Source: Nemertoderma westbladi (taxonomy: Eukaryota > Animalia > Xenacoelomorpha). Taken from it: a stretch of 43,249 nt of DNA. The notes under the pieces are model-generated. The model saw nothing but the letters and a program-made list of their open reading frames with translations, did no database searches and was not told where the DNA came from. The DNA lies in the NCBI GenBank assembly GCA_032718475.1, contig JAUCBJ010005838.1, positions 1 through 43,249 of the forward strand, given 5' to 3'. Made by a program: the position numbers and the translations under genes. The stretch's first letter is position 1. Each line of letters opens with the position of its first letter. Below, in pieces: positions 7,348-40,258 of the stretch.

Positions 7348-10274
7348 TTAAGAATACTGTGCCGGCTTATCTACAAAATTGCACCGCCACAACTCCCTAT
7401 CACCCATGACATTTGCTAGATCATCCGCATCATCAAGGCCAGTGTCCTTTAAGATGCGTCTCAAGAAAGTCATGTGCTGTCCACCATGCTTATTCACTCC
7501 ATGAGGCTGCCAAAGTACAAGATTATGCACTGGCTGGTCCTCACGGCGAAAGCAATGTCCTGCAAAGCGGAGGCGATTTTGTTCTAGTGTCAAACTTGGG
7601 GGAACCAATGAGACACCGCCAATGTTATATAGTGTCTGGTTGGAGATGTGTGCATTGAACTTGACACAATGAACCCGGCGTAGCATTCTTGTGAATGTGC
7701 CGTCCAGCGATTTGGTGTCCTCAGCAGTTAGAGCCCAGCATGGACTCCCATAGAGGAGTACTGGAACTACTGCTGCTCTAAATAACCGGACCTTAAGTTT
7801 CCGATTAATTCACGGTGACTTCCAAATCCTGGAAAGCCTATTCAAGGCTGCCCATGCCTTTCCCTTACGTATTCGAAGGTCCTCACCTGACTTCCGGTTC
7901 CATGATCTCAGGTAACAGAAGTCATCCACATGCTCAAGCATACCATCTTTTGAGCTTATGCTCATCCGATCAGAGACTTGCTGAGGACTTTCAAAGTTAA
8001 CTGTCAAAATTTTGGTCTTTCTGGAGTTAATAAAAAGACCAACACTAGAAGCAGCATGTTCTAATGAGCTGAGTGAGGAGCCGTTGGGCTCCCTCTAGTG
8101 ATTCTGAGAGTACTCCTAAGTCATCAGCAAAGTCTAGATCAGTTAGATACTTGGCAGGATTTCCTCGACTTCTGGAGCCAGTAGGTAGAGTTATCATCAC
8201 CCCATCATCATTATGATGATAGGACATGCGTAGAACATAGTCAACAACAATTATGAACAAGAATGGTGCAAGTGTGTCTCCCTGGAGGACGCCCCATAAC
8301 ACTTCAAATGGTTCTGTGTCACCGTCAACAGTAGACACAAATGTTGTCGAACCATCGTATACTGATCTGATTGCTGCAATAATTTCATCAGGAATCCCAT
8401 ATAATGAAAGTATGATGAACATACGTGAGCGAGTGACTGAATCAAAGACCTTGAAGAAATCAACAAAGATAACAGCCAGATGCCTGTCTTTCTTTTTTGA
8501 TAACTCTTCAATTATCTTTCTAAGTGCCAAAATGGAATCAATGGTCCCACGACCTTTACGGAACCCATTCTGATTTCCACGGAGCAGTCTCTCAATGGGA
8601 TCCCTGATGCGATTTAATATAATTATATTGTATGTATAGCTTTGCAGCAATCGAGATCAATGAGATTCCCCGAAAAGAACCATGGAGTGTTAGGTTGCCC
8701 TTCTTGGGAACTGGTACCAACTTATTTGTTTTCATTTCTTGTGGGACTCTTGTTGTATGTACGGTACATGTCTACTATGATGGGATAGATGAGCTTTAAA
8801 CACTCAGGTATTTTAAAGACCTCAGGGGGAACACCATCTACTCCACTGGCACGATTGGTCTTAATGCTCTTTGCAGCAGCCTTCACTTCTGCAAAGGAGA
8901 TATCACCAATGGGAATATCTGGGAGTACAGACTCAGACACTTTTACTTCTATAAAGTGATCAGGCAATACCATGTCATTATTGAGGAGCTTTTCAAAGTG
9001 GGCCTTCCAACCATTGAGGCGATCGGCTGGTGATTCAGCCTTAACCTTGGTGGTTGGTTGGCTTTTTCGACCAGCAAGCAAGTTGATCGATCTCGATGCC
9101 TGGGTTGATTGCCTGCTGTCGTCAGCATCATTGATGGCATCAACCTGTTGGTTTATTAGCTCCTGTAAATTAACAGAGTACTGCCTGTTCAGGGACCTAG
9201 ATGCAGCCTTAACTGCATTCTTGGCCGCTGTAGTCTGTTTGAGTCGGGACTCTTTCTGCGTCTTGTAGAGGTCATTTCGGCACTTCTGAATTTTGTTGTC
9301 ATTCCAGGGGGCCCGTTTCCTGTTTCGAGGGTATACAGGAACTGTTTCTGCAGCTGCTGCTGCTAACTTAACTGCCTCTGTGAAGGCAGTATAGTCCTAC
9401 AGTGATCTGCCGCCTCAGAGGCAAGAGCCTCATACCTGTTGCTCAGCTGTAGTGTGAAGCTGGATATCACACTTGGCTGTTGCAACAGGGAGGACCAGTC
9501 ATGCCGCGGCAAGGCAGATTTCGTTGTTCTGCTAGCACGCAGACTAAGTCTTACCTTGGCCAGAATAAGGCGGTAATCACTGGAGAAGGGTCGTAGTGTA
9601 AATGCATTACAGTCTTGTATAGAGCTCCTGTATTTCCTACGAAACAGGATATGGTCTATCTGGGATTTGTGACCACTGGGTCCACTATGAGTCCATAGCT
9701 TTCCAGTTCGCTTCTTGAACTGGGTTCCAGCCGAAAACAATCCATTTCCAGAGATAAAATCCTGAAGATGGACGGAATTTCGGTTAACACTATTGCTATA
9801 GACCCAGGGCGATGTAGGTGAATGATGCAGACTTACATTAAAGTCTCCCAGGAATGTTAAGAATGCATGCTGATCCACTCCATCAGTAGCTGCTTGTAGA
9901 AATTTTCCACCTCCTCTACAGGGGCAACACTAGTTGGAGAGTAGCACACAATCAGAACCACCTTAGGAAACTTCTTAGCCAGTCTACCAGAACATGAGAA
10001 GTGGCAACGGATGATGCGGTTAGAGATTTGGTCTATTTTGTCCAATGCTGCATGTGCAGTTGAATTCATCAATAGACCAATTCCACCATTGCCACTATCA
10101 TCTGCTAAAGCGAGGGCGAGTCGCCAACCGCCCCCCATGCCCTTAATCAGAACCTCATCAGTCTGTCCAGTCTGCATTCGGTGCTCTTGAACACCCACTG
10201 CACTAAGAGAAAGCTTATCTGCCAAGGCAGTCAGCTCACCCGAGTGTTAGGGTGTTTACTGAAGCTAGTCTAGT
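7348..10274 (-). pseudogene. RTE ORF: APE endonuclease plus reverse transcriptase, several frameshifts and stops
   Basis: APE motifs VGVQEHR, VCYSPT, LGDFN, QIDHIL, SDYRL. RT motifs QNGFRKGRGT, FVDFFKVFDSV, GVLQGDTLAPFLF, DLDFADD. RTE-type C-terminus RLRFAGHCFR. Confidence 0.9.
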
Positions 10275-10814: not shown

Positions 10815-11081
10815 TGTGAGCGGATTCAATTCCGCCTCACATAACCCCCATAAAGTAGGGAAGTGGCGCCTTTAAGCAATATTGGGGAGTACGAGGTTGA
10901 TTACAATCAACCTCGTATCACCCCCAATAATGCAGACAACACACGGCCCCAAAGAGCCACAGAAAAGAGGTTATAGGTCAAATCTCTTGGGAGAGGGAAA
11001 GTAGCAGCAGCGGGGGGGAAGCACTCCCACAGAGGTGGAGGCGAGAAGTGGGATAACAACCAATGGGAGAGGAGAGCATCC
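10815..11081 (+). repeat. Element B 5' LTR, left part
   Basis: Matches 32312-32578; interrupted at CATCC by element A. Confidence 0.92.
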
Positions 11082-12688
11082 TGTTCGCGGTATTTCAACT
11101 TTCCATAACGCGAGTTGAATATTTTTGTATTTATTTAAAATTGATTATTCCGATATTACTACTGGGTGCGGGACCATGGGTTTTGGGCACATTCAATAAA
11201 CTGGGGGCGATTTATGGGCGAACTTTGGGGCAACTTACAGGGTACGGGAATAATTTCATAGTTATAAGGGCCAGGGGGGATGGAAAATGCAAGCAGTATT
11301 CAGGTTAGCCTGAGTACTATTAGGCCCTGGCCAACTTCCTGCTGCCTGTAGGGGTGGATTTGGTAATGCGCCAGGCCTAAAGGACAAGGACTGCCCTTAG
11401 CGGTCCCTGGCCAACGGCAGCTACTACGAGACTGAAAAGAACTCGGAACGCTGACTGCTTGTGTCAGGGATTTGCGACGGGCACCGACGGCCCCTTAGTA
11501 GCCAAGCCGTTCTGGTTCTCGATGATCGAACCCCGGGGTTCGTGAGGGGTGGAGCGGACACGCGAACAGGTGGCCAACTAACGACTGCCCCCTGACCTAA
11601 GCCGTACTGGTTCTCGATGACCGATCCCTTCGGGGTTCGTGAGGGGTGGGACGGACATGCGAAAGGGCTGGCCACAGGACTGGTTTGACAAGGACTGCCC
11701 TTAGCGGTCTCGGGTCAACGGCAGCTACTACGAGCCTGAAAAGAACTCGGAACGCTGACTGCTTGACTGGGATTTGCGACGGGAACCGACGACAGACCCC
11801 TTAGCCAAGCCGTTCTGGTTCTCGATGATCGTTCCCTTCGGGGTTCGTGAGGGGTGGAGCGGACACGCGACGGGGTCGAAAGACAAAGGACTAGACTCGA
11901 CTAGACTCTACCGGCCTACCGACTGTTCGGAGCAGTTTCTCGGCTGCCGAAGCGACTACGAGCCTGAAACGGACTCGGAAAGCCTAGGTGGTTGGGTTTC
12001 TGTGATGAACTGACGGACCCCTAGCCAAGCCGTTCTGGTTCTCGATGATCGAACCCTTCGGGGTTCGTGAGGGGTGGAACGGACACGCGAACGGGTCCAC
12101 CGACACGACAGACTCCTAGCCAAGCCGTACTGGTTCTCGATGACCGAACCCTTCGGGGTTCGAGAGGGGTGGTACGGATACGCGACAGAGTCTACCGACT
12201 GGACCGACCCTTAGCCAAGCCGTGCTGGTTCTCGATGATCGTTCCCTTCGGGGTTCGTGAGGGGTGGAACGGACACGCGACAGGGTCGACCGACACCGAC
12301 ACTACGGCACTAAGACTGGGACTGAGGGAAAATCTGAGGAACATTAGGTAGGCTAAAATTCTGAGCGAACAGTGGGTTATTAAATAATATACCGTAGGGA
12401 TTTATATTATCGTGTATAATTATTGTGAATATTTGGTGTATATTGATTTGGGGAAGCCCAAAATTATTCTTAATCAGGGTTCAATATTGTTGACAAGGTT
12501 CAACAGAGTTCAGTTACATTAAAGAGTATATCCAACTAATGCAGCTTTTTCTCAACCGCAACCCTGCATCTCAGAAATCATTCCTTCTCCACAATCAATA
12601 TCCGGTGACTGGCCGGGGCTCGGTGGTCTGTTAAGTCACGTCTCCAGCATCGGCGTTTTTCCCCCCTGGTGTAGGAATAACGGCAACA
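11082..12688 (+). repeat. Element A 5' LTR
   Basis: Direct repeat of 23886-25492. Confidence 0.95.
11386..12292 (+). repeat. Array of structured repeats inside the LTR (six ~85-nt K-turn-like modules, three GNRA hairpins, two CTGCC/GGCAG hairpins); duplicated at 24190-25096
   Basis: Core AAGCCGTTCTGGTTCTCGATGATCGAACCCTTCGGGGTTCGTGAGGGGTGGAACGGACACGCGA near 11504, 11599, 11807, 12027, 12122 and 12217. Confidence 0.9.
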
Positions 12689-12690
12689 AA

Positions 12691-12703
12691 ATTAAGAATA
12701 ATT
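12691..12703 (+). promoter_or_regulatory. Non-tRNA primer-binding-site candidate (self-complementary to the LTR)
   Basis: ATTAAGAATAATT, 2 nt after the LTR end, is the exact reverse complement of LTR 12462-12474. No TGG-initiated tRNA PBS at this position. Confidence 0.55.
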
Positions 12704-12942
12704 AATGCGGTTAATTTTGACACGGTGTCAAAATTAAGAATAATTATCGTGGTCAACTTCAACTGGTGGAAGTTGAGAATCCTTCAATACTCTTCAAAAA
12801 CTCTCTACGTGCTTGCCAGCACCCACTACGAGGAAACTCTGGTATTTGAGTTGAGACAAAGTCGTGGTTTAATTAATCAGCAAACTCGATCTAACCAACT
12901 CGTAGTCGGCAGATCACATATTTGGAGAGTTGTTAACAGGGA

Positions 12943-13134
12943 ATGGAAGTATCGATCACACCCATTGATATAATTCAAGTTGAGCCAGGAATCTGGCACG
13001 TCGAAGTTGAGGTACAAGGAACGAACGTCGGACGATTCAGGATTACTGTTCGGGTGGTTCAAGCTGAGTACAATACCTACGAGGAACTGTTTTACGACAT
13101 CGCGTATCTCGCCATCGACGAGGCGTTACAATGA
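12943..13134 (+). CDS. Small acidic 63-aa ORF upstream of gag, stop overlapping the gag start (ATGA)
   Basis: ATG at 12943; TGA at 13132-13134 overlaps the gag ATG at 13131-13133. Confidence 0.4.
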   Translation: MEVSITPIDIIQVEPGIWHVEVEVQGTNVGRFRITVRVVQAEYNTYEELFYDIAYLAIDEALQ

Positions 13135-16100
13135 CAACAAATAACGTATCCGATACCGACGAGATGGATCACCACACAGACTCGGAAGCCGACGAGGTAC
13201 CAAACGTCAAAAACATGACCCGTCGGTTAGGGGCTCTTAAAGGCGGAGTAACCCGAGCGTATCAACGGATGGAGAAACAACTCAAGGGAGTCAAAACCCC
13301 CCTCAATGAGGTACAAACTCAGCTTCAAAGTATCCGAAATATCCTACAGCGGTACGAAAGAATGATACAGGCGTACCAAGAGCTCGTTCCCCCCACCGAT
13401 CTGGAAAACTACCCCAAGCTGGAAGAACACGTTGTACATTAGATGGGTTCCGCAAACAACACCGGAGGACCCTCAGCCTTGTGAGAGGCTATGAGGAACA
13501 GTATTACAAGAGGGCTGAAAGAACAGACGCGGAATCAGTACGATCCTCCAGCATCAGGACAGGAGTACATCGCAAGAGAATGGGGTCCACCAGAAATCAG
13601 CACTCCAGCGCTAGGAGCGAGATATCCGGCTCAGCGTGCAGTTCTCAAGGGGCGCCGCCACTCCGAGACCAACTGCGAGAGCGGAAGGCATTAGCCCTCA
13701 AAGCTCGGATGGAAGATGAGTATATTCAACTGCAAGCCGAGCAAGATGTATTAGCTGCAGAAACCCAAAGGCGAGAGGCCGAACAAGCGGCCGAACGGCA
13801 GGCCGAACAACGTGAACAGGAAGCCGAACAACGCAGGCGAGAGGACGAACAACGCAAACGAGAGGACGAACGACAGGCCGAACAACGCAGGCGAGAAGAC
13901 GAACAACGCAAACACGAGGACGAACGACAGGCCGAACAGCGCAAACACGAGGCCGAACAACGCAAACACGAGGACGAACGACAGGCCGAACAGCGCAAAC
14001 ACGAGGCCGAACAACGCAAACAGGAGGCCGAACAACGCGGACGAGAGGCCGAACGGGAGATCGAACAACGTAAATGGGAAGCAGAAATGCGTAAACAACA
14101 CGCCGAGGCCCAAGCAATTCTCATCCACAAAAAGAACGCGGATATTGCAAAACTCGCGGAATACGAAGCCGCACTTATAGAACGAGATATTCAACTCTAC
14201 GAGGACTGGGAGAGGGATATAGATCAGGAATATGAACCAATCCCGGTACCGGAATTAGAAAAGTCATTTATACCGACAGCGGCGAAACTTCCGAAACCCG
14301 AAATCCCGCCTACCAAACAGTCTACGCTATCGGCACAAGCACCGGTGTTCCATCCACCACCGGCGACGCTAAAGAACGAGGAACCTTATTTCCCATCCAA
14401 CACCACGACAGCGAGTGTACCCAAGTACGAGCCTGAAAAGGACTCGGAACGGGACGCCACTCCCCGATCAAACAACCCATTTACATCAACACCACAAACT
14501 CGTAGCCGCGTCATTATTAAAACTCCGCCTATCATTGATCCATCAAGTATGGGAGTGAGTGCCAATAACTATAACCCTCCGAGTCACTCCAGTTCAGACG
14601 ACGTCAGCATCATCCGGGCGTTGGAGAACCGCCTTGCCATGCCGAAGATGGAGATTCGCACCTTCGAAGGAGATCCCGTCGATTACCTCAGATTCAAGAA
14701 ACGGTTCTTTGCGCAGATTGGATCAACGGACATAGCCGACGCACAGAAATTGGTATATTTATCGCAATACCTGGGTGACAAACCCCGCAGAATTGTTGCA
14801 TGTTTTGAAGGAGGTTCTCATGAGGCATACTATGACGCATGGAAAACTCTAGACAAAAGATACGGAAATACCGGAACTATAATTAATAAAACTCTAGAGA
14901 GACTGATACAGGATGCAGGATCACTAGGGGACCCACAGAACATACAGGAATTCTCCGACTCTATGAAAGATGCCTATTATACTCTGAAGCCCTTAAATAA
15001 GGAGGACCAGGTGAACAACATTCTAAACCTCCGACAGATCGCCCGGAAGTTCCCCGGATGGCTACAAAGTAAGTGGGCTTATAAATGTGTAGATCTCCGG
15101 CGCAGACATCCAGATCGAGATCCTAGCTTCCTTGAAATGTCGGCATTCCTGGACGATATCTCCGAAGCCATGAATGACTCGATGTTTTCAAAACAAAGTC
15201 TCGCAAAGTTGGACGGAATAGAGAGCAACTCTAGGAGTAAGATAACCCCTCCGAAACCAAGATTCCGCCCCCCACCGGTAAGTACGATGGCCATCACCAT
15301 GGCTGAGGATTCCGACGACGAAGACTACGAGGAACCGACATCCGCCAAGGAATGGGCATGTTATCTCGCGAATTGGGCCCCCGAAAGGGAAGGCGTCACA
15401 AATTCCCTACTCTGTCTCTTCTGTGGGGAGAAACATAAAGTGGAATTCTGCAGGAAGTTTCAGTTCGCCGAACTCGTCCCACGTTTCGAGGCGATAATGA
15501 AACACCGAGGATGCTTCCGGTGTCTTGGAACAGGTCACTACGTTCGGGATTGCGACCAAAGGTCGTGCTGTGCTGTCTGTAACGACCAACGCCATCACAC
15601 GCTCCTCCACATCCCCGCGAACTTCGACTTTACTACCCTCCCCTTTCGGATCGAAGCCAGGCGAAGAGGAGAAACAAACCACGTCTTCAAAGGAACCCGG
15701 ACAACCCAACGGAGAGAAACCAACCCGTTTAAAATCTCCACCGCTACACCACAAGTAACAAATATTTCGGCCACGATTAATCTTATAAATCGCCGCTACA
15801 TGGTTTTCGCAAAGGTAATCCCAGTAAGGATCCAAGGAGTCGGCAAATCTTTGACGACACTCGCATTCCTCGATAACGGGTCCGACGGAACCATCATCGA
15901 CCGGGATTTTCTCGAGCAACTCGGCCTAGAATATGAGCCTTGTAAACGGCCCATACAAACCATCACCGATAACAGAGAGGTAGAGTCCGGGGAGGTGCAA
16001 CTCCAGATGGAAGGAGTGATGAAGGGCTACGAAACGGCTAAGTTAACCATAAAGAACGCCTTGGTACACACAGACCTCCGGGTGCGGTTCCGACAATCAG

Positions 16101-19100
16101 CCGAGTACGCCCCCCTCATACAATTGGACCGGGACGATGTAGACCTGAGGTGTCCGCAGTTGGACGTAAACCGTATCACCCTACTGATCGGACTTGATAC
16201 ACCGGAACTACACATCCCCACCGGAGATATCGCCCGATCTATAAACCAGGATGACGGATTTTATGCTGAACGAACAATAATGGGATGGACACTCTGCGGC
16301 ATTAAGGAGGAAACCACGGACACCTATACCTACCTTCCCAAATGTCAGATTAAAGAGAATGTAACCTCCGTGGGTTACTGCTCAGCTTCGGATCTCGACG
16401 AGGATTTGTTTCTGGAAACCGAGAAAACCCAACGAGAGATGACGAAATATTTTAATTTGGAGACCCAGGAGTTCGCGGAAAAGGACGAAAATCCATCCGA
16501 AGAGGACCAATATTGTATGGACGTTCTCGACCAGGCCACGTTTAAAGACGGACACTGGAGTTCACCTATGTTATGGAAGGACCCAAACAAACCAATGGCA
16601 AACAACGCCAGCATGGCACTTAGGCGACTTAAAGGGATTCTACGCCGGTTGAATGACCAACCCGAGATAAAGGAGAAGTATAACACCGTAATCCAAGGAT
16701 ATCTCGATGATGGATTAGCAGAAATGGTACCACGGAACGAACTGCAAGGTGGTAAAAGAACATATTATCTCCCGACCCACTATGTAGTAGAAGCCCGCAA
16801 AGGTGGGAAAATCCGAGTGGTAAATGATGCTGCCGCTATATACCAGGGCGAATCCCTAAACAGTCAACTTTATACGGGACCCAACATATATAGCACACTC
16901 ATCGGCGTATTGATCAGGTTCAGGGAAAACCGGGTAGCATTCACCTGTGACATCAAGGCCATGTTTCATCAAGTTCGTACATTACCAAGAGACTCGGACT
17001 GTCTACGTATCCTATGGACGGATAAAACGCTTACTCAACAGGAGATTAGCCAACTCACGATAAAGGACGTAGACATAATGCGTATGGTCGTCAGGATCTT
17101 CGGCGCTAAGGACTCGCCGGTAGCATGCAGTGACATGCTAAAGAGGACGGCAACCAATTGCGAAAACGAGTTCCCTCCAACCGTCATAGAAACCATTCGA
17201 CGATGCTTCTACGTGGACGACGGATGCGCTGGCGCGGATAATGTAGATGAGGCGTATCAGCTAGCAATGGGGATGGTAGAATGTCTAAAGAAAGGAGGGT
17301 TCCCACTCGTGAAGTTCAGATCCCACGACAAAACACTTATGGAAAAGTTTCCGGAGGATATCCGGCTGGAAAATAACAAGATGTATTCGGAGGATGTGGA
17401 ACATCGTGTACTCGGGATTGAATGGGACATAGAATCAGATGAATTCATCTTCAAATATAAACCCCTACCCAAGCCTATGACAAAAAGGGGATGTTTGTCG
17501 ATAAAAAGTGCAATCTTCGACCCACTAAATTTCATATCTCCAGTAACCTTGGCCGGAATGAACCTGATTAAGGAAATGTGGATAGAAGGACTGGGATGGG
17601 ACGAAGAGCTTCCCCCATACCTTAGCGTCAAATGGAGAAAATGGACGGAGCAACTCGAACACCTACATCTTATGCGGATACCTAGACCGTTCTTCCTCGA
17701 TAAACTGCCCACCGATATCTTCCAGCTCCACACCTTTTCGGATGCTTCAAATACCGGAATCGGCGTAGTAACCTTCTTACGGAGACTAAGTAGCGATGGA
17801 AACGGCGATACAAGCTTCTTATTCTCCAAAGCAAAGACGGTATCCGGGGAATTCGTAGCAACGATTCCGAGACTCGAGCTACAAGCTGCAGTTTGGGCAG
17901 TAAGACAGAATCGCATGGCCATGCGGAACCTACGGATCCCCATAGAATCTCAACACTTCTGGGTAGATTCGAGTATAGTTCTCTATTATCTCCACTCTCC
18001 ATCACGGCGTCACACCACGTTTGTTGCAAACCGAGCCACAGAGATTAAACAGTGTACCGGCCGAGAACAGTGGCATCACGTAAACGGGAAGGAAAACCCA
18101 GCGGACTAATCAAGCCGAGGCGCCACCCCAAAACAACTCGGTAAAAGTAAACTCTGGCTTACAGGCCCGGAATTCCTACGGCAGCCACAGTTAACATGGA
18201 GTACCCGATTCGACCCCGAACTCGATAGCGGAAAATACTCCGAGGACGATAAAGAGATTCGTAAAATCCATCGAAGCAACGCGGTGGAAATTTATAGTTG
18301 CCTGACTGAGCCTGCAAAGGACTCGGGCAGGCACTATAACGTCGCGACGATCACTCAACTAGCGACGTCTTTACATCGGTTGATCGAGCGAACTTCATCC
18401 ATGAGACGGCTCGTCCACCATGTTATAACCCTTCGCAACTTCCTACGGTGGAAAAACAACAAACCGATAGTTCAACGGAATATACAAGAACTCATTATCG
18501 CGGAGAAGTGTATTGTTAGATATGTCCAGAAAGAAAGTTTCCCCGATGAATGGGAACAACTTAGTGCGGGCAAAACGTTGAAACCGGACAGCCCAGTCTA
18601 CCAACTAAGACCAATGATGGGAGAGGACGGACTGATCCGACTGAATACCCGGATGGCAAACGCCCCGGTCGAATATGAGGTTAAATACCCGGCGCTCTGC
18701 CCGGAACGTCGACACTAGCTAAGCTATTAATTCTACAATGTCACGAGGACAACCACCACGCAGGACAGAATTGGATTATAGCTAATATAAGACAAAGATA
18801 TTGGATCACCCATATCCAGCCACTGATCCGGAAAGTGTTGAAACGTTGCTTCACCTGCAGACGTTACCTAGCGCCACCAATCACTCAAAAGATGGCCGAC
18901 TTACCAGCCACCCATCTACAAGCGGATTCCCAGCCATTCTACGTCACCGGGGTGGACTGTTTCGGACCGTTCACGGTTATTGAACGACGATCCAACATCA
19001 AATGCTGGGGAGCCATCTTCACCTGCCTGAGGTCTAGGGCAATTTACCTAGATATCGTGGTAAATCTGACACAACACGCATTCATCAACGCTCTGCGTCG

Positions 19101-19916
19101 GTTCGTGGCGAACAACGGGACATGCCACCACATGTATTCCGATAATGGTACAAACTTTGTGGGAGGAGAAAGGGAACTCAGAGAGGCGATCGAGGGATGG
19201 TTTACCGATAACACACCGCATCCCAAGTCTGGAAGGAACACCAGATACAGTGGCACTTCCAGACCCCCTTAGCCCCCCATACGAGCGGGGTATGGGAGAA
19301 ACTGATCGACCTCGTGAAACGATCCATGCGCGTCGCTCTAGGCGATACCCGGGTAACCCATGATACCCTCCGCACAACATTCTGCGAGATCACGGCTACC
19401 CTGAACAACCGACCTATTGTCCCTATCCGCGACGACCCCACAGACCTGGAGCCCCTCACTCCTAACCACCTACTGGGGAGACCCAAAACCCACGTTCTCC
19501 CGGAAACCATGTTCCCGGATCCCAACGAGATCGCGAAGCATACAAACTGGAAAAAGGCCCAAGCGTTGGCAGCGCATTGGTGGAGAATTTGGGCCCAGGA
19601 ATATCTCATAACCCTCCGGACCAGGAGAAAATGGAACAACACCTACCGGAACGTCGCAGTTGGCGACATGGTACTAGTTAAAGAAGATCTCAAAGACCGC
19701 GTTCACTGGCCTGTGGCGCGGGTCGTGACCATACACCCAAGTAAAGACGGACTTGCGAGGACTGTGACGATACGAACGGCAAAGGGCCACTACCAACGCC
19801 CTATCCAGAAGCTGTGCCTTCTTGAAGGCAATGACAGTGGTGATTCTACGAGAGGTGATAAGATCCCTACTCAAGATCCTGCTGTGGACATTGGTGACAA
19901 TTACAAATCTGTGTAA
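13131..19916 (+). pseudogene. BEL/Pao gag-pol polyprotein, disrupted by frameshifts (~13439, ~18715, ~19230) and a stop (18107-18109)
   Basis: DUF1759-like PKMEIRTFEGDPVDYLRF. Zn knuckles CLFCGEKH, CFRCLGTGHYVRDC, CAVCNDQRHHTLLH. Protease FLDNGSDGT. RT RVVNDAAA, DIKAMFHQV, FYVDD. RNase H LHTFSDAS, TIPRLELQAA, NPAD. Integrase HEDNHH...CFTC, VDCFGP, SDNGTNFVG, APHTSGVWEKL. C-terminal WAQEYLITL. Confidence 0.95.
13770..14100 (+). repeat. Coding tandem repeats (EQRK/EDERQA coiled coil) in gag
   Basis: Repeated GAGGCCGAACAACGCAAAC-type units. Confidence 0.85.
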
Positions 19917-20191
19917 CCCTTCTCATCATGTTGACAAACTCTTATAAACTGTGATTTATCGACAACGAATTATGGACCCCCTTTAAACAACTGTAACCAC
20001 GCAATGGTATTTGTGTTTCCTCGTGTGTTATGTGGAGTCCAGCATCACCCTGCAGATGTTTCGACTGACGCAGGGTCGTTTATGTATTGTTTACCCTGAT
20101 TTTGGTCATCAGGACCTACGATATTGGATTATTGGAAATGGAAAAGATTTGAAGTGGAATTCATTGTATTCATTGCAGTATGTTATGTTGT

Positions 20192-20610
20192 CCGTTGCGT
20201 GCGCAGTTTGGGGCGTAGGCGGTGTAACGAGTCCAGCTGTAGATCCTGGATTGCCGCGCAACACCCCCTCTATCCCGTTATTCTGGTGGGTCCATGGTGC
20301 ATCCACATGACTTCGACGATAGAGGGTTTTATGTTTCTCAGTCGCGTTATTCTGGTGGGACCGTTACGTGGATTTTGGGGCGTAGGCGGTGTAACGAGTC
20401 CAGCTGTAGATCCCAGAATGTTGCGTAACCCCATCCCACATGACTTCGTCGACTGAGCTTTATGTTGTTGGGAGTGTTATTCTGGTGGGTCCCTGGTGCA
20501 TCCACGTGACTTCACTCCTAGCGTCTTCATTGTCCGTTACGTGCGCAGTTTGGGGCGTAGGCGGTGTAACGAGTCCAGCTGTAGATCCCAGATTGCCGCG
20601 TAACACCCCT
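20192..20610 (+). repeat. Interleaved structured repeats between pol and the accessory ORF
   Basis: Motif X TTTGGGGCGTAGGCGGTGTAACGAGTCCAGCTGTAGATCC x3 (20207, 20375, 20549). Motif Y GTTATTCTGGTGGG...CCAC[A/G]TGACTTC x3 (20277, 20346, 20476). Confidence 0.9.
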
Positions 20611-21163
20611 TCCACGACAAAGATTAACCAAAGAAAATGATTGAATATAGTTGGAAATGATGAAAAGGATCAGACAACTCTACTATAAACCTGAATGATG
20701 ACGCGTATGCTGATGAAAATGTGATGATGCGCACCCTGGTGCTGCGCTTATAACAAATGATGATAGCCGGGGGGCTATAAACCCAATGATGATGTGGAAA
20801 TAAATAAATGTGAAATAAATGGTGGAACTAAATGTTGAAATATATGTGGAAATAAATGAAATGAAATGAAATAATAATGAAAGGAAAAAAGACAAAAAAA
20901 AGGTATAAAAGAGGTCAAAGAATATAATTGGAAAAAAAAAAAGGACAAAAAAGTCATAAAAAACTGGTTGGATATTATGTATAGCTATAGTAACTGTAAA
21001 TGCTGAATGTATTAGCAATAAGATGATAGATGCCTATATAGCAATGTTATTTAATAAACTGAATTAAATAAAAAAAAACTGAATTATTCTGCTATCGCTA
21101 TAGTTTCAGACTTTCTGGACTTATAATTAACTGAACTAATTTGTAACGGATATAATCGTAAAT

Positions 21164-23719
21164 ATGGACCCAAATCGCCAAATTATCGGCGAATTACGTA
21201 ACACGATAGATCTACTGGAATATTCGCAACCCGGATCCCCTGACTTTGATACAAATTGGAGCATTCTGCTAAATGAGAACGTATGAGAAGTTAAATTCAC
21301 CGGGCGAGAGGGACCGGATTCTAAGAATCTACGAGCCCTCCGGTTAGCCGATGCTAGTACGAGACTGAAAAGAACTCGGAACGCAAAGGCAACCGGAGGG
21401 GACGATTCGTCGTTTTGGGAAACGTTCCGGCAGAACGTCTACAGATCCCGATGTTTGATCTACGACAACGAGGGAAACGCGACGCCCACCTCGAAAGCGA
21501 TTACGTTGGCGAGATGTCAAAGTTTCGTCGACGACAAGAGTACGTACCTAGCCCACTGGGGAAACCTGTCGGAGTGTACGGCGAAGCTTCGAGAGGAACG
21601 CGTATCGATTATCCAAAACCGCGACGACTACCAGGAAAAGTACGGGGCGAAAGAATACGGTCGATCCTTAGTCGTCGTCCTCGGAACCCTGGACGGTTTG
21701 GTACTGGTGTGCCGAATATTCCCGACACCCAGACAGGAAGTGCAGGCAGCCGGAGCGATCTGGTTGCTGCCTCCGGAAATCCAAAAGATCCTCTTCGACT
21801 TCGACGTCATTAAAATCGGGTCGGATATCAAGGCGGACGTCCGGAACGACTACGCGAACGCTCCCGCAGGAAGAAACCGACGAAACGACCTCAACGCACT
21901 TAGCCATTGCATCGACACTCAAACGCTGCTAGCCTGGTTACGATTCGCCGAGTTCATGCGAGGATTCCAAGAAGTGAGACCGACGAAATCCGGGATCGGC
22001 TACCTCGCTGTGCTCAACGGCGGTATCGACTTCAAACCCCAGAAATTCCGGGACTATAATAAAATATACGGCGGATACCCGGGATTAGAGATAAAGAGCG
22101 AGCGAGAGGGTCGATGGAAGGACGTCGATCGGAAGTGGACGATACACCAAAGGTGGGAGAATCCCGATCGACGGAGCTATATCTACGTCGTTATGGAATG
22201 CTACACCGTCGCTAAGTTTATCTGTAAAACTCTCGATAACCTTATTACGGCGGTCCCCCTTTCCTTCGTCGACTACGACTGGAACGAGGTTATAAACCAC
22301 GCGTTTAAAGCGGTCGAGAACATTACACCGGGAGAATCAAAAACGCCCGCCGTTATTGATTCCTGGGACGAGAGCGGACCTTACGACATCCCTACGATTA
22401 CCGAACTTCTCGGTGCGGAGGAGCCTCTGATCTCCTCGGAAGGGGAAGAGATATGGCTAAACGAGGGTGTTCTACTCTCCACCCCGAAGCGACAACTCGA
22501 GCCGGAGGCCGCGTACGGACCGGCCGCCAAACGGGTCGCCTCGGCCGAACCGATGAAGAGAGCAGGCGTCTACACCCCACGCGGCTCCGGTAGCCCCGCG
22601 AGAGAGGTAGCCACTACGGCTGCATTGAGCGACTTCGGCGACATATGCCAACGGTTATCCCCGTATCCTTTCCCGGGCGGCGAAGATTGGTTGTCGGAGA
22701 TTCCGAGTACCAGCCACCAACGGACCCGCTCAGCGATACTGGTCGAGGAAGGCCCCAGCGATGCGCCGACACCCGACGATCTCCTCGGTATCCCTCCGTC
22801 GAAAACCCCGGCACCTCTTCGCCGACCAGCGGTGGCTACTACACCCGCCGTTCCTCAGGACCCTATGCGACTAACCCGTTGGTACGCCGAGCAAACTGAA
22901 TGGATCCACCGCCAGAAACGGTCATCCGAGTTGAGACCAGCGGGACACAAAGAGGGTTATCGGAGCGAGAACATACTACGCAAAAGCCTAGCATTCCGCG
23001 GGCTACCGACCACCGAGAATATTCCGAAGAGCGACCGACGACTCGAATACTACGTCGGCGTCCCGATTCCGATATTCCCCGGTCGAGAAACGCAGTTGGA
23101 GGTATGCGGCGACTGCGGCTCGGAGCAGTGCCCACGCGGCAGAAGGAATCGGGTTACCGATTCTTGCCTCCAGCTCCTCGGGATACTCTATTGCCCATAC
23201 TGCGCGATATCGGGCCACGACGTTTCGGTCTGTCCGATCCTTTATAACCTCTGCACCACGTGCGGTTTCCGTGGACATTCCGCTATGGGCAATATGGTCA
23301 CGTTTGAGACATACGCAAACAGCCACTTAAAGACCAAGTTTCGGAGAAACACTCGGAATATCGCGCAGGAGATGGCGTGCGGATATTTCTCCTTCCCGGA
23401 ACGCCTCCACACGTCGGCCTCGCTACCCTTCCATTACGTGGATCTGCTACTGAGCGCCGGATTATTCGGTCCATTCGAAGTTATTAGACGATTATACTCG
23501 TATAAAGAGGAGTTCGGTGACGGAGAATGGTTCCTAGAGGCACGCAACTCCGAGTTGGAAAGACGAACCGACATGATCCCGATGCCTTCGAAAGGAAGAG
23601 CCGCCAGGAGATAAGCCGAAGCGTTACTCACAATGGATGTTGACGCTCCTCTACCAGCCATAGCGATCGATGAGAGTCGACGGGCGAAGAGACGAAAGGC
23701 GTACCAGAAAAAGAAATAA
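21164..23719 (+). CDS. Accessory ORF of element A: DEDDy-type 3'-5' exonuclease, disordered linker, CCHC zinc knuckles and basic tail; in-frame stops at 21284 and 23612
   Basis: ATG 21164 is in frame with the 719-aa ORF. ExoI-like IYDNEG. WRN/EXD-like LLPPEIQKILFDFDVIKIGSDIKADV (ExoII), CIDTQ, KSGIGYLA and WENPDRRSYIYVVMECY (ExoIII-like). CPYCAISGHDVSVC and CTTCGFRGH. Reading through 23612 adds ...RRAKRRKAYQKKK. Confidence 0.75.
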
Positions 23720-23885
23720 TGGATTGGGATATTCCAGGAACATTTATCGAACATTTATTTTTATACAAACTCTAGGCCAAATTAATTAAAAACTATGCAA
23801 TATTAAATTTGTGATTTTTTATATTGGGAATGACCTACGCAAACTCAATCGACCGACAGACTTCACGAAGGTCATTGGGGGGGAC

Positions 23886-25492
23886 TGTTCGCGGTATTTC
23901 AACTTTCCATAACGCGAGTTGAATATTTTTGTATTTATTTAAAATTGATTATTCCGATATTACTACTGGGTGCGGGACCATGGGTTTTGGGCACATTCAA
24001 TAAACTGGGGGCGATTTATGGGCGAACTTTGGGGCAACTTACAGGGTACGGGAATAATTTCATAGTTATAAGGGCCAGGGGGGATGGAAAATGCAAGCAG
24101 TATTCAGGTTAGCCTGAGTACTATTAGGCCCTGGCCAACTTCCTGCTGCCTGTAGGGGTGGATTTGGTAATGCGCCAGGCCTAAAGGACAAGGACTGCCC
24201 TTAGCGGTCCCTGGCCAACGGCAGCTACTACGAGACTGAAAAGAACTCGGAACGCTGACTGCTTGTGTCAGGGATTTGCGACGGGCACCGACGGCCCCTT
24301 AGTAGCCAAGCCGTTCTGGTTCTCGATGATCGAACCCCGGGGTTCGTGAGGGGTGGAGCGGACACGCGAACAGGTGGCCAACTAACGACTGCCCCCTGAC
24401 CTAAGCCGTACTGGTTCTCGATGACCGATCCCTTCGGGGTTCGTGAGGGGTGGGACGGACATGCGAAAGGGCTGGCCACAGGACTGGTTTGACAAGGACT
24501 GCCCTTAGCGGTCTCGGGTCAACGGCAGCTACTACGAGCCTGAAAAGAACTCGGAACGCTGACTGCTTGACTGGGATTTGCGACGGGAACCGACGACAGA
24601 CCCCTTAGCCAAGCCATTCTGGTTCTCGATGATCGTTCCCTTCGGGGTTCGTGAGGGGTGGAGCGGACACGCGACGGGGTCGAAAGACAAAGGACTAGAC
24701 TCGACTAGACTCTACCGGCCTACCGACTGTTCGGAGCAGTTTCTCGGCTGCCGAAGCGACTACGAGCCTGAAACGGACTCGGAAAGCCTAGGTGGTTGGG
24801 TTTCTGTGATGAACTGACGGACCCCTAGCCAAGCCGTTCTGGTTCTCGATGATCGAACCCTTCGGGGTTCGTGAGGGGTGGAACGGACACGCGAACGGGT
24901 CCACCGACACGACAGACTCCTAGCCAAGCCATACTGGTTCTCGATGACCGAACCCTTCGGGGTTCGAGAGGGGTGGTACGGATACGCGACAGAGTCTACC
25001 GACTGGACCGACCCTTAGCCAAGCCGTGCTGGTTCTCGATGATCGTTCCCTTCGGGGTTCGTGAGGGGTGGAACGGACACGCGACAGGGTCGACCGACAC
25101 CGACACTACGGCACTAAGACTGGGACTGAGGGAAAATCTGAGGAACATTAGGTAGGCTAAAATTCTGAGCGAACAGTGGGTTATTAAATAATATACCGTA
25201 GGGATTTATATTATCGTGTATAATTATTGTGAATATGTGGTGTATATTGATTTGGGGAAGCCCAAAATTATTCTTAATCAGGGTTCAATATTGTTGACAA
25301 GGTTCAACAGAGTTCAGTTACATTAAAGAGTATATCCAACTAATGCAGCTTTTTCTCAACCGCAACCCTGCATCTCAGAAATCATTCCTTCTCCACAATC
25401 AATATCCGGTGACTGGCCGGGGCTCGGTGGTCTGTTAAGTCACGTCTCCAGCATCGGCGTTTTTCCCCCCTGGTGTAGGAATAATGGCAACA
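23886..25492 (+). repeat. Element A 3' LTR
   Basis: Direct repeat of 11082-12688, preceded by a G-run PPT. Confidence 0.95.
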
Positions 25493-25497
25493 CATCC

Positions 25498-25822
25498 ACT
25501 AGGTACAGAGGCCAAGATACTGTAAGATTAGCCAATGTATATATTATATTGCATGCAGTGAAGTTATTCAGTTATTCCATTCATTAGTGCAGTTAGGTGA
25601 CATTTTCGTACCGTCACCATCATTACCGGTCAGTAGCATCTATATTACTTAACTTATCTTATTACCGTCACCCAGTCAACTGTGCTATTATATCTCATTG
25701 CCGTATATCAATCAACCTGTAACAGCATATCAATATCAGAACAACAAACTATTATCTTCTTTCACAACGAGCGGCGACGCGTAACGAAAACAAACCAGTC
25801 GGGATCCCCTGATCCCATCACA
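25498..25822 (+). repeat. Element B 5' LTR, right part (TATA-like ~25538, Inr-like TCAGTT 25568)
   Basis: Matches 32579-32903; 267+325 = 592 bp reconstitutes the LTR. Confidence 0.92.
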
Positions 25823-25887: not shown

Positions 25888-28800
25888 ATGAGCGAAGCCC
25901 AAAACCTAGAGGGAGAGACGACACCGTCGCTGACCCCGGACGATACCAACGAAACGATCCATGAGGCCACGACGCGACGGTATTGACCCGCAATGCCGGA
26001 CTCGCCGGAACGGGACGATCCGGTAGCCCAAGCGGGGGGCGGCCGTCTACCAGGATGAGGGAATGAGTCGACGCACAATGGTGATCGACGTACCGATGTC
26101 GCCGGCCAGCCACAGGCCGAGGGCGACGGACGGCCCACCAGAACGGCGACGGTGGGGCCGCCGGTACGACGCCAAACCAGGAGGGGAGGAGGAGAGGTCA
26201 GCGACGAGGATGTCGGAACCAGTGACCGGCTCTGATGAGCCTACAACGCAACAAAGAAACAACTCAAGGAGGCTAGAGAAGGAGTAAAGATAGATCAAGG
26301 GAAGTTGAGCCGGCGACTAGGTGAGTCGAATAAACACTTCAACTAACTAGTTCGCTTCGGGCAGGGAGAACTAGCCAGTTAGAGAGCGAGGGGGGTCGCC
26401 ACCGAACTATTTGAACTGTGGCGATCTGGGATAATGGAGCCACAGATAGTGTACATAGGGCTGTATTTAGTGGATGCTAGGGGAATTAAGTTAGTGGGTT
26501 GGGCAGACCCGCACGAGGGCGAATCCGAGATTAACCCCGAGGATTCGGTCTCGTCGGCTAGCGAGAACCCCAGAAAGCGGGGGAAAGTTAGTAGGACAGA
26601 GAGGCGACGGGAGTCCATCGCAACCGACAAGTCCGCTACATCCTCCGCAAAAGCAAGAAGGGTGTTAGAAATAGATCCGGCGTGTCAGTTGGATATGGTG
26701 GTGCTAGACCAGAAAGAGTTAGAGAGGCAGTTGGAAGAGGGAACTGCGTTGTTGGAAAGAGAGAGAGAACTGGCGAGAGAGAATAAAGAGAGGGCTGAGA
26801 GGGTCGCGAGAAACTTTAGAGAGTGTGAGGAGATATAAATAAGGGAAGGAAAGGAGCGAGAAGAGCGAGAGGCGAAAGAGGCGAGCGAACGTAAGGAGCG
26901 AGAGGCGAAAGAGGCGAGCGAAAGTAAGGAGCGAGAGGCGGAAGAGGCGAGCGAACGTAAAGAGCGAGGGGCGAGAGAGGAGAGTGAACGTAAAGAGCGA
27001 GAGGTGAGAGAGGAGAATGAACGCAAAGAGCGAGGGGCGAGAGAGGAGAATGAGCGTAAAGAGCGTGAGGCGAGAGGGGCAAGCGAGTGAAAAGAGCGTG
27101 AGGCGAGACGGCTTGAGAGGATTGCGAGAGAGGCGGAATTGGCCGAGCAGAGTTTGCGAGAGGATAGGGAGAGAGAGAGAACGGGAAAGCGTGTGCGGGA
27201 TGATATGCACGCCCGGTTGAGGGGGCTTATGCAATATCAGGCCAAACAGAAGCGCAGTTGGGGCTGTCAGAGAGTGAGGCTGGCTCGGGTAGTGTTTACG
27301 AGGAGCCAGAAGTTATGGAAACGTTTGTTATTACCCCACTTACAGGGACCGGACGACATACCCAAGACTGGTGTAACCGTACGGGCGGGGAGGGGGGGGG
27401 GGTAATAATAATACGTTAGAAAACGTTAATATTAATAGTACCGTAGTGGATAACCCTAATCAAACTTTCATTGCAGCAAATAACATTTTGCCCGGTAATA
27501 GTAATTTAAATCCGAATGATCCTAATTTAAATGTAGAAAATGATTCAAATAATCTAGATTCGAATATACAAAATAATTAAATTAATTTAAATTTAAATAC
27601 GCAAATAATCTAAATAATAATCTTACTTCAAACGAACAAAATAACCCCAATTCTAACCAAAATATACGAAATAATTTAAATAATAATCCGAATTCAGAGA
27701 ATAATTCTAATAATTTCAATAATTTCAATAATAATATTGATAACGGGGCTATTAATAATAACATGGAAGACACAGGTGGGCCGGCCAACCGAAGCCTGCA
27801 AGGCAACGTAGTTAGTACGCAGGGAGTAGCGGGGGTGAGTGACCCCGACGGGAGCCTGCAAGGCCACGTAGTTAGGCAGGGAGTAGCGGGGGTAAGTCAA
27901 CCCGACGGAAGCCTGACAGGCTACGCAGTTGCACAGGGAGAGGTGGGGGTGAGTAGAACCAGCCGCAGTAGAGACAGTGCGTCGACTAGAGAGGGGTGTA
28001 GAAGCGAAGTAGGAGGTAGTGAAGTTAGAAGTGGCGAGTGGGGGGGGGGGGGGGCTACGGGCGCCCCACCACGGAAGATTAGTGGCGAGAGAGGGGGAGC
28101 AGAGAATGGAGCAGAGTCAGTGGGGTCGAACTCCGGGAGATTGCCGTCGCCCTGGAGAGACACACCGCACGCCGAGAGAGGGGTACAGAATGTACCGATA
28201 CGAAGACGAGAACAGGAGAGGGGATCGAAGAGAAACTTCCCGATGGGATATAGCTGCCGATCGAGAGTACGGTAGTCGCAGGGAGATTCGAGATTCGAGA
28301 AGATTAAACTTCGGTTCGGGAAGGGCACATGCAGACTGCAGGACATGCTGTAGGACTTACTGCACATACTATTATAGGCCATGCTGGGAGAGATAGTGTG
28401 GCGATAGGGTAGCGCGAACGACGGGATTAGATCCGGGAGTCGCGGAGTACATGCCAGTAGGTAGGCAAGAAGTGGATAGGCTTATATCGGTACCAGCACA
28501 GCAGCATGACTATAATATGCAGGGACATAACATATATCCAGGGGAGGGGAGAGTTATTGCAGATAGATGTATGGGCCCCAATATATTAACATCAACCCCA
28601 GTACCAAACATACCGATGGGGGGGGGGGGGGGGGGACAGGGTGACATTCCCCCATTACATTATCAACAATACACTCAAACAGGAATAAGAACATCGAATC
28701 CCCTGGATGAGGACAGGTCGTGCGACACGGAAATATGGAGGGGGCCGCTACCCCCAATGATATATCCGAGACAGAGAGAGTCAACAGGCCCGATGGGCGG

Positions 28801-31146
28801 ACCGCACCCAACAGGAGAATCTGTACAGCATCCCTCGAACCCATTGGAAGCACAGGCAATGGGAATGGCGGCACTAATTGATGCACTAAAGACCAGGATC
28901 GAGTTACCACCAGTCGAGCCATTTAAATTCGACGGAAGTAGGCCGGAAGAATACCTGCAATTTCGGCGCATGTACAGCAATGAAATATTGACAAAGAACC
29001 TGACGCAGGCGGAGTGCCTAAAATATTTAAAGGTATATACAGGAGGCCAAGCAAGCGTACGACATCGTGAGGCAGTATCAGGGCATCGAGGGCGGCTTCA
29101 CGACTGCATGTAGGGCCCTAGACAGGGAATACGGACACCCAGCCAAGATCATCCGGCAAACCCTGAGGGGTATAACATCGGGTGGCCTACAGGATAACCT
29201 TGTCAGCATAAAGACGTTTGTGAACAAAGTCGAGAAGGCGTTAATCATGCTGAAGACGCTAGACGCGCCATACGAACTCAACGCATCTAATAACATCACC
29301 ACGATAGCGCAGGCACTGCCGATCTGGCTGCAGAGCAAGTGGAGGAAGATCGCCTTCTCCACACGGGAGAAGAAAGGTGCGGAGCCAGGGCTAGAGGAAA
29401 TGTCAAACTTCCTCAACTACGAAGCAGAGTTGATCACAGACCCAGTCTAGTGAGGATAGTTTGGGGAAGGCGCCAAAGACCGAATACAACAGGCCTAAAC
29501 CCGAACATAATCCTGCAGATCCATTCCCGAGAGTAAGACAGTTGCTACCACACGCGGCCACACAGGGGGCTACAAGCCCACAGTTAGCTGGGAGTAGGGC
29601 CACACCGTGGCAGGGACAGAAAGAAAATAACAACACAAATAAGCATAATCCCAACATACCCAGTAGGCCGAGTCCAGATAACCAAAACACTAAATCGGTA
29701 GATATAAACCTACGCGCGATACGTGAGGGACTATACAGGGAACGCTATAATCCAGGATTCGAATGTCAATTACATCAGGACGGAACCCATAAGACCATGA
29801 GTTGTAAGCACTGGCAAGCGTTGCCCAAACAAGATCATATAGCCTACACAGACGCAAACGGACTATGTCATCATTGTGTGGTAGAAGGACACAGATCCGG
29901 AGAGTGTAGAGAAACAGCAATCGGAGACGATGAGACTGGAGGCCAAACAATGGCTACAAGCACCACAGGAGTAAGGAAAAAGAGGAAAGTACTACTCGGG
30001 GTAGTACCAGTGAAGATATCAGGAAAGGGCGGTCGATCAGTAACGACATTAATGCTGGTCGACAGCGGAGCAGCCTTCACGCTGGTGGAGAATTGGGTGG
30101 CCGAAGAGATAGGGCTAAAGACGAGGCCGAATAGGATGGCGGTAACTACCGTCTCAAGTAAGGATGAGGTCCTGGAGATGAGGACGGGGCGGTGCAAGAT
30201 AGCAGCGATAGCACCGGGATGCGATTATGGGGCGACGATCGACCCCATCCACGTGATAGAATCGATAAATATCAACGCCAGGCGACCAACCAACATTGAA
30301 GTCGAACAATATAGATTCCTGGACAGTATCGATTTCTCAATACCAGAGGTGGACGTTAGGAAGGTATCCATTATAGTAGGAATGGACTGCCCGACGGCCC
30401 ACGAGAGAATGCAGACGGTCTTCGGCGAAGACAGACAGCGGGATCCGACGGCGATCCTCACGCCGTTCGGATGGACGCTTAGCGGCCCAGTTAAAACCAA
30501 GATTCCATCCAGGGTGACAGAGACATCAGGGTGCATGTTACCAGGCACCGTAGACGCAGAGGACGAAGAGAAGAAACCGGAGATGGTAGATGAGCCAGAC
30601 GGGGAAGTAACAGTAGGAGAGTGGGCGGAGGAGAATGGATTTGACGTGGAAGACTTAGAGGCAATGAGATGGAACAAGGGTCCCAGCAAGTATTGGTATG
30701 GGGATGGAGAGGAGCAGACGGCTAGATGTCCGGAGGACAACCCGGAGGAGCGGACGGCGAGATGTCCGGAGGACAACAGTCTGGGGGAGTGTCCGGAGGA
30801 GTGTTCGGAGGAGTGTCCGGAGGAGTGTCCAGAGGAGTGTCCGGAAGAGACGCCGGTCCGGTTGAAAGGCATACCGACAAGGGGGAGGTCGAGTAAGAAG
30901 ACAGGATGGAAAGGGATAGGATTACTATTGTCCGTTCTGTTTTATCTATTCTTCCGATTTCTTTTCATTCTACCGCCAGGAGACGATCAGATGAAGGGTG
31001 GCATTTTACTGCCAGGAAATGAGGAAATTAAGAAGGCGGCTGAGAGACCCGACTTTAGGGTGGCAGAAGAGGGAGAAGCAATTCCTAGAGGATTGGAATT
31101 GGCGAAGAGAGGGTGGCGAAGAATAAGAGGACGTATAGGGGGGTAG
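25888..31146 (+). pseudogene. Element B gag-protease remnant, multiple frameshifts and stops, no RT/RH/IN
   Basis: INPEDSVSS, ERE-rich coil, DUF1759-like IELPPVEPFKFDGSRPEEYLQF, WLQSKW, knuckle CHHCVVEGHRSGEC, protease MLVDSGAAFT, PTAILTPFGWTLSGP. Confidence 0.85.
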
Positions 31147-31249
31147 TGGGAGAGTGCCTACTGGAAGAAGGGGCACCTTAGAGTTTAGTCGTCCAATATT
31201 TTGGACTGAGGGGGGTGGGAATGAGGGCGAGACGCCCTTCCCATGCACA

Positions 31250-40093: not shown

Positions 40094-40258
40094 TATACAT
40101 TATACAAATATATCATCTTATATGTAATTTATATTTTCTGGAATGCCCTTCCCTTATATTGTTATATATATTTTATTATTTATTATAGATAATCTATAAT
40201 TATAGTTTCGTTGAATTACACCTACTGTATTATACAAGACAATTTTATATTACAGTAG

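Follow-up and report, generated by a model that had tools for sequence, protein, structure and literature searches.

Two triplicated stem modules between pol and an exonuclease-like ORF of a BEL/Pao retrotransposon in Nemertoderma westbladi

What could be the role of a series of repeated, self-complementary sequences placed between pol and an additional open reading frame (ORF2) of a retrotransposon? The question is raised by contig JAUCBJ010005838.1 of the Nemertoderma westbladi assembly GCA_032718475.1, whose 43,249 nucleotides, read on the forward strand, are the window analysed here. An initial, sequence-only reading had noticed at positions 20192 to 20610 an invariant core carried on exchangeable stems, and had proposed four possible functions for it: an IRES or translation enhancer for the downstream ORF, an export element, an exonuclease-blocking structure or a novel ribozyme.

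The array and its host element

The array starts 276 nt 3′ of the pol stop and consists of three X hairpins and three Y stems, all on the forward strand, which in the predicted fold follow each other in the order X1, Y1, Y2 holding X2, Y3 and X3. The threefold occurrence of an identical X core of about 40 nt was confirmed: 37 nt are exactly repeated at 20210-20246, 20377-20413 and 20552-20588, and 40 nt are identical when the preceding TTT is counted. None of 100 shuffles gave any match to the core at three mismatches or fewer. X1 (20194-20262, z −2.8) is predicted to form 25 pairs, with its core at 20207-20246, a 10-nt apical loop at 20223-20232 and a GUA/GUA internal loop. The second and third cores belong to X2 (20363-20429), nested in Y2, and X3 (20536-20604, z −4.3). 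The stem swap that had been pointed out, GUUGCG/CGCAAC in X1 versus GUUACG/CGUAAC in X2 and X3, is present.

Motif Y was likewise found three times, as GTTATTCTGGTGGG at 20277, 20346 and 20476, each time with a CCAC-RUGACUU partner, for an expected count of 0.23 at two mismatches. Y1 (20266-20326, z −2.8) has the constant internal loop UUAUUCUG / AUGACUU. In Y2 (20337-20457, z −4.1) the apical part is replaced by X2, so that the middle Y does enclose an X module in the predicted fold, and Y3 (20469-20520, z −1.5) has a third, unrelated outer helix. The repeats of motif Y thus stood, but the structure first drawn for them, a GUUAU/RUGAC helix with a UCUG bulge, did not: ViennaRNA prefers a two-part internal loop (UUAU/CUU, a 2-bp UC/GA helix, then UG/AU), with an energy for Y3 of −18.6 kcal/mol, versus −12.8 for the bulged-helix form. 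The array is followed by an A-rich spacer (20620-21100, forward strand, 46% A, no predicted structure). Within this tract, AAGTCAT at 20949-20955 is complementary to the Y 3′ strand AUGACUU, which may be due to chance.

The host of the array is a young BEL/Pao LTR retrotransposon of 14.4 kb (11082-25492). Its LTRs (5′ LTR, 11082-12688; 3′ LTR, 23886-25492, with a G-run just upstream; both on the forward strand) have TG...CA ends, and a 5-bp target duplication, CATCC, is present at 11077-11081 and 25493-25497, two features that characterise BEL/Pao elements. Since the LTRs differ at just 4 sites and CATCC flanks both ends, the insertion is recent. The gag-pol gene (13068-19916, forward strand) is split into five frame pieces in this copy, with a final stop at 19916. 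Pfam domains DUF1759, aspartyl protease, Peptidase_A17, Integrase_H2C2 and DUF5641 were detected in these pieces; the gag-pol domains are of the Pao type (DUF1759, Peptidase_A17, DUF5641) and the integrase comes last, as in BEL/Pao. At least 120 relatives of pol were found, at most 41% identical among the matches listed, and those that bear a name are from animals. Contigs from four sequencing runs of one organism (3 samples) span the whole array, and their summed depth, far greater than that of the low-depth contigs, suggests many copies of the element in the organism, depth in these sister contigs being, by the tool's own warning, no copy number.

Several other observations were made in the window. 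No TGG-type primer site follows the 5′ LTR; 13 nt at 12691-12703 are complementary to the LTR-internal segment 12462-12474, an arrangement like that of self-priming elements such as Tf1. The BEL/Pao element is inserted in what looks like one LTR of a second LTR element (10815-11081, 25493-25822 and 32312-32903). The interior of the latter (26000-32300) is strongly G-skewed and contains tandem repeats as well as an ORF for an aspartyl protease. Two broken reverse-transcriptase elements, one with an endonuclease match, lie on the minus strand (7348-9929 and 38621-40099). Long inverted repeats are found at 40165-41507, and an ORF at 2634-3578 has a 2OG-Fe(II) oxygenase domain.

Two further repeated modules were seen in the element itself. 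A third hairpin module, GAG-M-CUG-NAAN-R-ACUC, matches 9 times on the sense strand (0.01 expected), at 11428, 11732, 11960, 14429, 18308, 21361, 24232, 24536 and 24764. Three of these 9 copies are inside coding frames, in two phases, as expected of dispersed RNA binding sites. The module was absent from the 127 loci searched. The most stable tiles of the element are those at 18282 and 21282 (z −4.3 and −4.6). A fourth module consists of 6 repeats per LTR (11495-12295 and 24299-25099), with covarying stems and a GAUGA/UGAG junction that resembles the kink-turn consensus; five of its copies start with the A-box-like TAGCCAAGCCGT, at one mismatch.

Folding, strand bias and selection

The array folded better than shuffled sequences on the sense strand (z −4.10, 0 of 100 shuffles as good), and less so on the antisense strand (z −1.18, 8 of 100). 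All five modules fold better in the sense than in the antisense orientation, Y1 barely, and 21 of the 130 pairs in the modules are G-U. This strand bias, together with the G-U pairs, points to RNA rather than a DNA cruciform as the acting form. With fixed 120-nt windows the array was not flagged (best z −2.5), and none of the 4 tiles among 120 with z ≤ −2.5 is within it, meaning that the stability signal depends on module borders, which were picked from the fold.

Comparison of the copies with each other was more telling as to selection. Between X1 and X2, the arms differ at 9 of 30 aligned sites and by a gap, versus 0 of 37 sites in the cores (Fisher p 3×10−4); the same contrast gave p 0.015 for X2-X3 and 0.04 for X1-X3. 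The outer stems of the Y modules are three different sequences, which pair with their own partners at −15.0, −12.1 and −8.3 kcal/mol and more weakly when crossed (best cross pair, −6.8 kcal/mol). The X arms are less partner-specific, the 5′ arm of X2 pairing better with the 3′ arm of X3. In RNAalifold alignments of three sequences for each module, both partners of a pair had changed in 2 of 25 cases for X and in 4 of 17 for Y.

Sister contigs of the four runs gave 14 substitutions at a frequency of at least 2% across the array. Nine of them inside modules and one just outside were examined, the 4 flank ones being omitted. Five of the nine module substitutions are at paired sites, and the pair is kept in all five; when 20259, possibly cross-mapped from X3, is dropped, 4 of 4 are kept (p 0.12). 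Because 160 of 272 transitions at paired sites keep a pair anyway, this is by itself a weak sign. Two of the four variable unpaired sites, 20571 and 20574, are in the X apical loop: the core, identical among the three copies of the array, is therefore not strictly invariant across the family. As cores are repeats, these loop variants are not assignable to a single copy. Module content also varies, since low-depth contigs run from the 5′ flank straight into a Y or an X module, and some sister contigs are less than 90% identical. One further run, X6, presumed to be RNA, gave no cover of the array, from which nothing follows.

Altogether, constant cores, stems that differ and yet pair, and the sense-strand bias in folding make selection on RNA structure likely. 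Support for the earlier proposal, a functional RNA whose cores stay constant while its stems are exchangeable, comes from the contrast between arms and cores, the partner specificity of Y and the sister variants.

Expression of ORF2 and distribution of the array

ORF2 (21164-23614, forward strand) encodes a DEDDy-exonuclease-like N-terminal domain and a C-terminal Cys/His zinc cluster, and is interrupted in this copy by an in-frame stop at 21284-21286. Its description as an exonuclease ORF was borne out as a likeness (Atlas score of 0.93 to a cluster in which 42% of members have PF01612), but not by a Pfam match. The Cys/His cluster is invariant, with an Atlas score of just 0.85. The D-x-E stretch is missing from ORF2 of this copy; homologs P0001, P0004 and P0007 carry it, so that no family-wide claim of a dead-nuclease binder can be made. 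A search with ORF2 yielded 7 representatives. No match to ORF2 was found in the word-indexed database or in viral contigs, and a search of the PDB by sequence gave nothing under E 0.04. The AlphaFold model of ORF2 has a pLDDT of 32, too low for use.

How might ORF2 be expressed? From the end of the array to its ATG there are 553 nt (up to 21163), with 30 ATG and 6 AATAAA. A candidate 3′ splice acceptor, recognised from the sequence, is present at 21088-21109 on the forward strand: a pyrimidine run followed by CAG, after which the next ATG is the start of ORF2. Its AG, at 21109 and 55 nt before this ATG, is joint first of 3 in pyrimidine richness among 52 AG. A search with the ORF2 zinc cluster retrieved five loci, L123 to L127. 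A BEL pol is directly upstream in L125, L126 and L127, with spacers between pol and ORF2 of 218, 94 and 230 nt; no pol match was found in L123 and L124. In L123, L125, L126 and L127, the AG that ranks first in pyrimidine richness within the stretch examined is 3-26 nt from the ORF2-like ATG, on its 5′ side. L124, where the contig begins at the ORF, is left out of this comparison, and L126 is an easy case, its spacer being without any other ATG. Because an acceptor-like AG precedes the ORF2 start in this element as in four related loci, splicing of ORF2 is likely, which would make the array intronic, within the part removed. Extra ORFs of LTR elements are typically made from spliced messages, according to the excerpted text of PMC5408684. 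A stable fold (z −4.0) was also seen at 8410-8530 of L123, upstream of the ORF2-like gene of this locus devoid of a pol match.

No repeat array was found in the pol-to-ORF2 spacers of L125, L126 and L127. As these three related BEL elements, with the same type of ORF2, have short array-less spacers, the family as a whole does not depend on the array. Models of X and Y run over the window and the five loci (99,130 bases) gave good scores only for the 3 + 3 source copies, the next-best hits outside the array having E values of 0.43 (X) and 0.74 (Y). Exact X patterns were absent from viral, metagenome and genome contigs, and blastn of the array against phages gave none. The Y pattern had a single match in viral contigs, in L128 (19 bits, without the outer stem), which was taken as chance. 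X and Y thus appear to be two new motifs, so far confined to one retrotransposon family.

In L127, positions 7042-7054, at the equivalent spacer position, match the Y 5′ strand for 13 nt (11 of 5000 shuffles as good). Sister L125 differs there, and the match folds weakly (−7.7) and is absent from the hits of the Y model. In this part of the spacer (L127 7042-7089, L125 8020-8071) the Y-like 13 nt stand just before CTAAC, a pyrimidine run and AG; the match could be chance, or an ancestral tie of Y to a splice acceptor.

Candidate functions of the array

Among the four functions first proposed, an export element would fit best. We tentatively propose, with slightly less than an even chance, that the array is a multivalent protein-binding export or fate element of unspliced genomic RNA, which would work like the MTE of musD or the CTE of MPMV. 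The element would be transcribed through the array, and ORF2 would be translated from an mRNA spliced to the acceptor at 21109, from which the array is removed; as splicing takes it out, the array would mark the unspliced RNA. The X apical loop, the GUA/GUA loop and the Y internal loop would be binding sites and the stems spacers, three copies giving a higher avidity. Candidate partners are a host export factor, Gag or the ORF2 protein, and docking would lead to nuclear export of the genomic RNA in unspliced form for translation and packaging. A kissing contact between X and Y loops may organise the fold. The X loop pairs over 6 bp with the Y 5′ strand, and 562 of 20000 shuffled loops pair as well; for the Y 3′ strand 7689 of 20000 do so, and both X-loop variants fall in this second pairing, which is therefore doubtful. 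The modelled kiss is a hint only.

Export elements of this sort are described in the excerpted sources as follows. The musD MTE is a multi-stem-loop of about 400 nt with a kiss between a loop and an internal loop (PMC4588558; PMC5767303), and the MPMV CTE has two duplicated internal loops that bind NXF1 (PMC4338338). The direct repeats of RSV have effects that span export, stability and packaging (PMC3856414), and retroelement export elements need not have sequence in common (PMC11379458). Cer1, an invertebrate LTR element, needs a dedicated route for export of its unspliced RNA (PMC10309623).

The array has repeated conserved internal loops on replaceable stems, as in the CTE, where they are duplicated, and its size of about 420 nt and predicted fold agree with a multi-stem-loop of a few hundred nt such as the MTE, which is likewise non-coding, 3′ in its LTR element and with a possible kiss; a presumed intronic position would place the array in the unspliced RNA. 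It differs from both in its BEL/Pao host, in its likely intronic site between pol and an additional ORF rather than next to the 3′ LTR, and in having two module types in triplicate. Rfam revealed no sequence likeness to known export elements. Bdelloid LTR retrotransposons likewise have an extra ORF after pol, a DEDDy exonuclease ORF3, spliced as a rule (PMC5408684); the present element is different in being BEL/Pao with an added zinc cluster, and the excerpted text mentions no RNA array for the bdelloid elements. At the sequence level, export, packaging and localisation would be indistinguishable here.

If the partner were the ORF2 protein, a circuit of the Rev/RRE type could operate, in which this protein, made from the spliced message, would bind the X/Y array in its own intron and switch the balance from spliced to unspliced RNA, as part of a four-module RNA code across the element's genome. 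We consider this unlikely as a whole. A related case is Cer1 of C. elegans, which exports its genomic RNA via CERV, a Cys-rich protein whose message is spliced (PMC10309623): ORF2 is likewise probably spliced and has a Cys/His cluster, and there would be an unspliced RNA to export. In contrast, the excerpted Cer1 text describes no RNA response element or stem-loop, and ORF2 is exonuclease-like. Egalitarian binds bulged stem-loops in pairs, partly through an exonuclease homology domain (PMC13186709), so that its signals (ILS of the I-factor, TLS of K10) resemble the array in their paired bulged stem-loops and exonuclease-homology protein; according to the same excerpt, these signals have shape rather than sequence in common and are bound by a host protein, whereas X and Y keep an exact sequence.

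An alternative that we also hold unlikely on balance is that of a stability or 3′-end element, which would shield the RNA from decay or govern the six downstream AAUAAA, for example for a shortened gag-pol mRNA. The six AATAAA and the 46% A tract are indeed 3′ of the array, and the element encodes a 3′-5′ exonuclease-like protein, but the A-rich composition would by itself account for the number of AATAAA. The Y internal loop contains U, and some transposons have stability elements whose loops are U-rich (PMC7583470, in part). An ENE stability element was nevertheless rejected: the Y loop strands, UUAUUCUG and RUGACUU, have two adjacent U on the 3′ side, versus the five or so U-A-U triples formed by the U-rich loop of the PAN element in the same source, and no Rfam match was found.

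A largely neutral origin, in which template switching would have multiplied a hairpin cassette and gene conversion would have kept its copies uniform, we regard as rather improbable. Each module is present in three copies only, in a very young element, related elements lack the array, module content varies among low-depth contigs, and the pairing test on sister variants is not significant. Conversion can keep cores alike, but it would not produce three unrelated self-complementary outer stems or the sense-strand and G-U bias, and all 29 bins of the array were covered in all four runs, with no more than 14 substitutions at a frequency of at least 2%.

Is one of the modules a ribozyme, as suggested at the outset? 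Neither Rfam nor the twister-sister tests supported it. Rfam scans gave two sub-threshold matches in 10500-33000, none of them in the array, two sub-threshold matches in 20150-20650 with nothing at or near the cut-off, and none in L123-L127; ARAGORN found 0 genes. The lack of an Rfam match also bears on the proposed exonuclease-blocking structure. By eye, the array may resemble the 5′ ends of tRNAs, the Alu domain of SRP and, in antisense, loop A of the hairpin ribozyme, likenesses for which Rfam and ARAGORN were the tests; the X apical loop may have a T-loop-like fold, on which a literature search found nothing. Twister, in which two pseudoknots, T1 and T2, arise from loop L4 according to the excerpted text of PMC6154101, was rejected: it had no Rfam match, and the X loop would pair only weakly with the strands of its internal loop (−2.3 and −1.3 kcal/mol).

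The comparison with twister-sister (RF02681) was made with the residues named in the excerpted text of PMC5660989 and with real examples fetched by pattern. X resembles it in the letters of the P4 hairpin (GGUG.AA...GUCCAGC) and in having a GC..AG loop strand; it differs by the lack of a P3/P5 junction and of a C-A scissile step, and by a 10-nt loop with 3 extra bases. The RF02681 model had no hit in the array even with E values of up to 10 allowed, and in the positive control gave 11 matches, of 75-88 bits, in 9 of 20 loci. According to PMC5660989, a three- or four-way junction lets SL4 dock on L1; 36 twister-sister-like sequences have junction spacers of 20-26 and 19-28 nt, and X has 3 and 2 nt at these places. 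The conserved residues taken together were matched as well by 3078 of 10000 shuffles (p 0.31). The L1 strands (G5-C6-A7-A8-G9 and G59-C60-U61-C62-A63-U64) are present as partial letters, with 9254 of 10000 shuffles scoring as well, and there is no C-A step in the X 3′ loop strand. For the SL4 loop (G29-U30-G31-C32-A33-A34-G35-U36-C37), 8 of 9 letters are found by eye with a 3-nt insertion (loop alone, p 0.50), and the local alignment of X to twister-sister was equalled by 1040 of 5000 shuffles. With its junction absent, motif matches at chance level and no Rfam score, X was rejected as a twister-sister member; a shared loop fold without catalysis would be the simpler reading.

A variant, in which X would be a junction-less twister-sister relative cleaving in trans, its apical loop docking on the internal loop of another X, is very unlikely. 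By eye, the X letters GC-GU-AG, G-UG-U-AA-CGA-GU-C and GCU come in the order of G5-G9, G29-C37 and G59-U61 (PMC5660989, in part), 20574 alternates U/C as does the Rfam model there, and the core matched the P4 hairpin of one real twister-sister, chosen after the fact, better than 9931 of 10000 core shuffles did (69/10000, p 0.007). Junction-less twister-sister-like ribozymes are reported in PMC11620745, and PMC13725137 indicates that self-cleavage can drive cap-independent translation (both excerpted). Against these stand, besides the silence of Rfam on the array, the short spacers, the shuffle-level motif matches and the missing C-A step, the fact that efficient cleavage would split the genomic RNA mid-way, with 30 AUGs downstream.

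Small-RNA precursors, in the manner of the Pol III pre-miRNA cluster of bovine leukemia virus, are highly improbable. X1 and X3 are hairpins of about 70 nt with 25 predicted pairs, but the consensus A-box and B-box are absent within one mismatch and the hairpins are not ended by T-runs, so that such a cluster was rejected; the conserved part is the loop end and not 22-nt arms, and X2 is nested in Y2. Retroviral pre-miRNA clusters are known, as excerpted from PMC4378190. Least probable of all is an IRES or translation enhancer for ORF2: the array does have structure and an ORF on either side along the coding strand, but an IRES adjoins the start codon or leaves a scannable path to it, and here the 30 ATG and 6 AATAAA intervene, with an acceptor-like AG before the start in this element and in four related loci, one having a spacer of 94 nt.

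The array has several implications. Much is known of export and fate elements from vertebrate retroviruses and from musD, and none was found for BEL/Pao in a literature whose coverage here is incomplete. X and Y, as two naturally triplicated new motifs with built-in stem swaps, are easy to test. Should X cleave, it would be a twister-sister-like ribozyme without a junction, and should the ORF2 protein be the binder, the unexplained exonuclease-like ORFs of retrotransposons would gain a role. X and Y could reveal how unspliced RNA is dealt with in an element of invertebrate type that has an additional, spliced gene.
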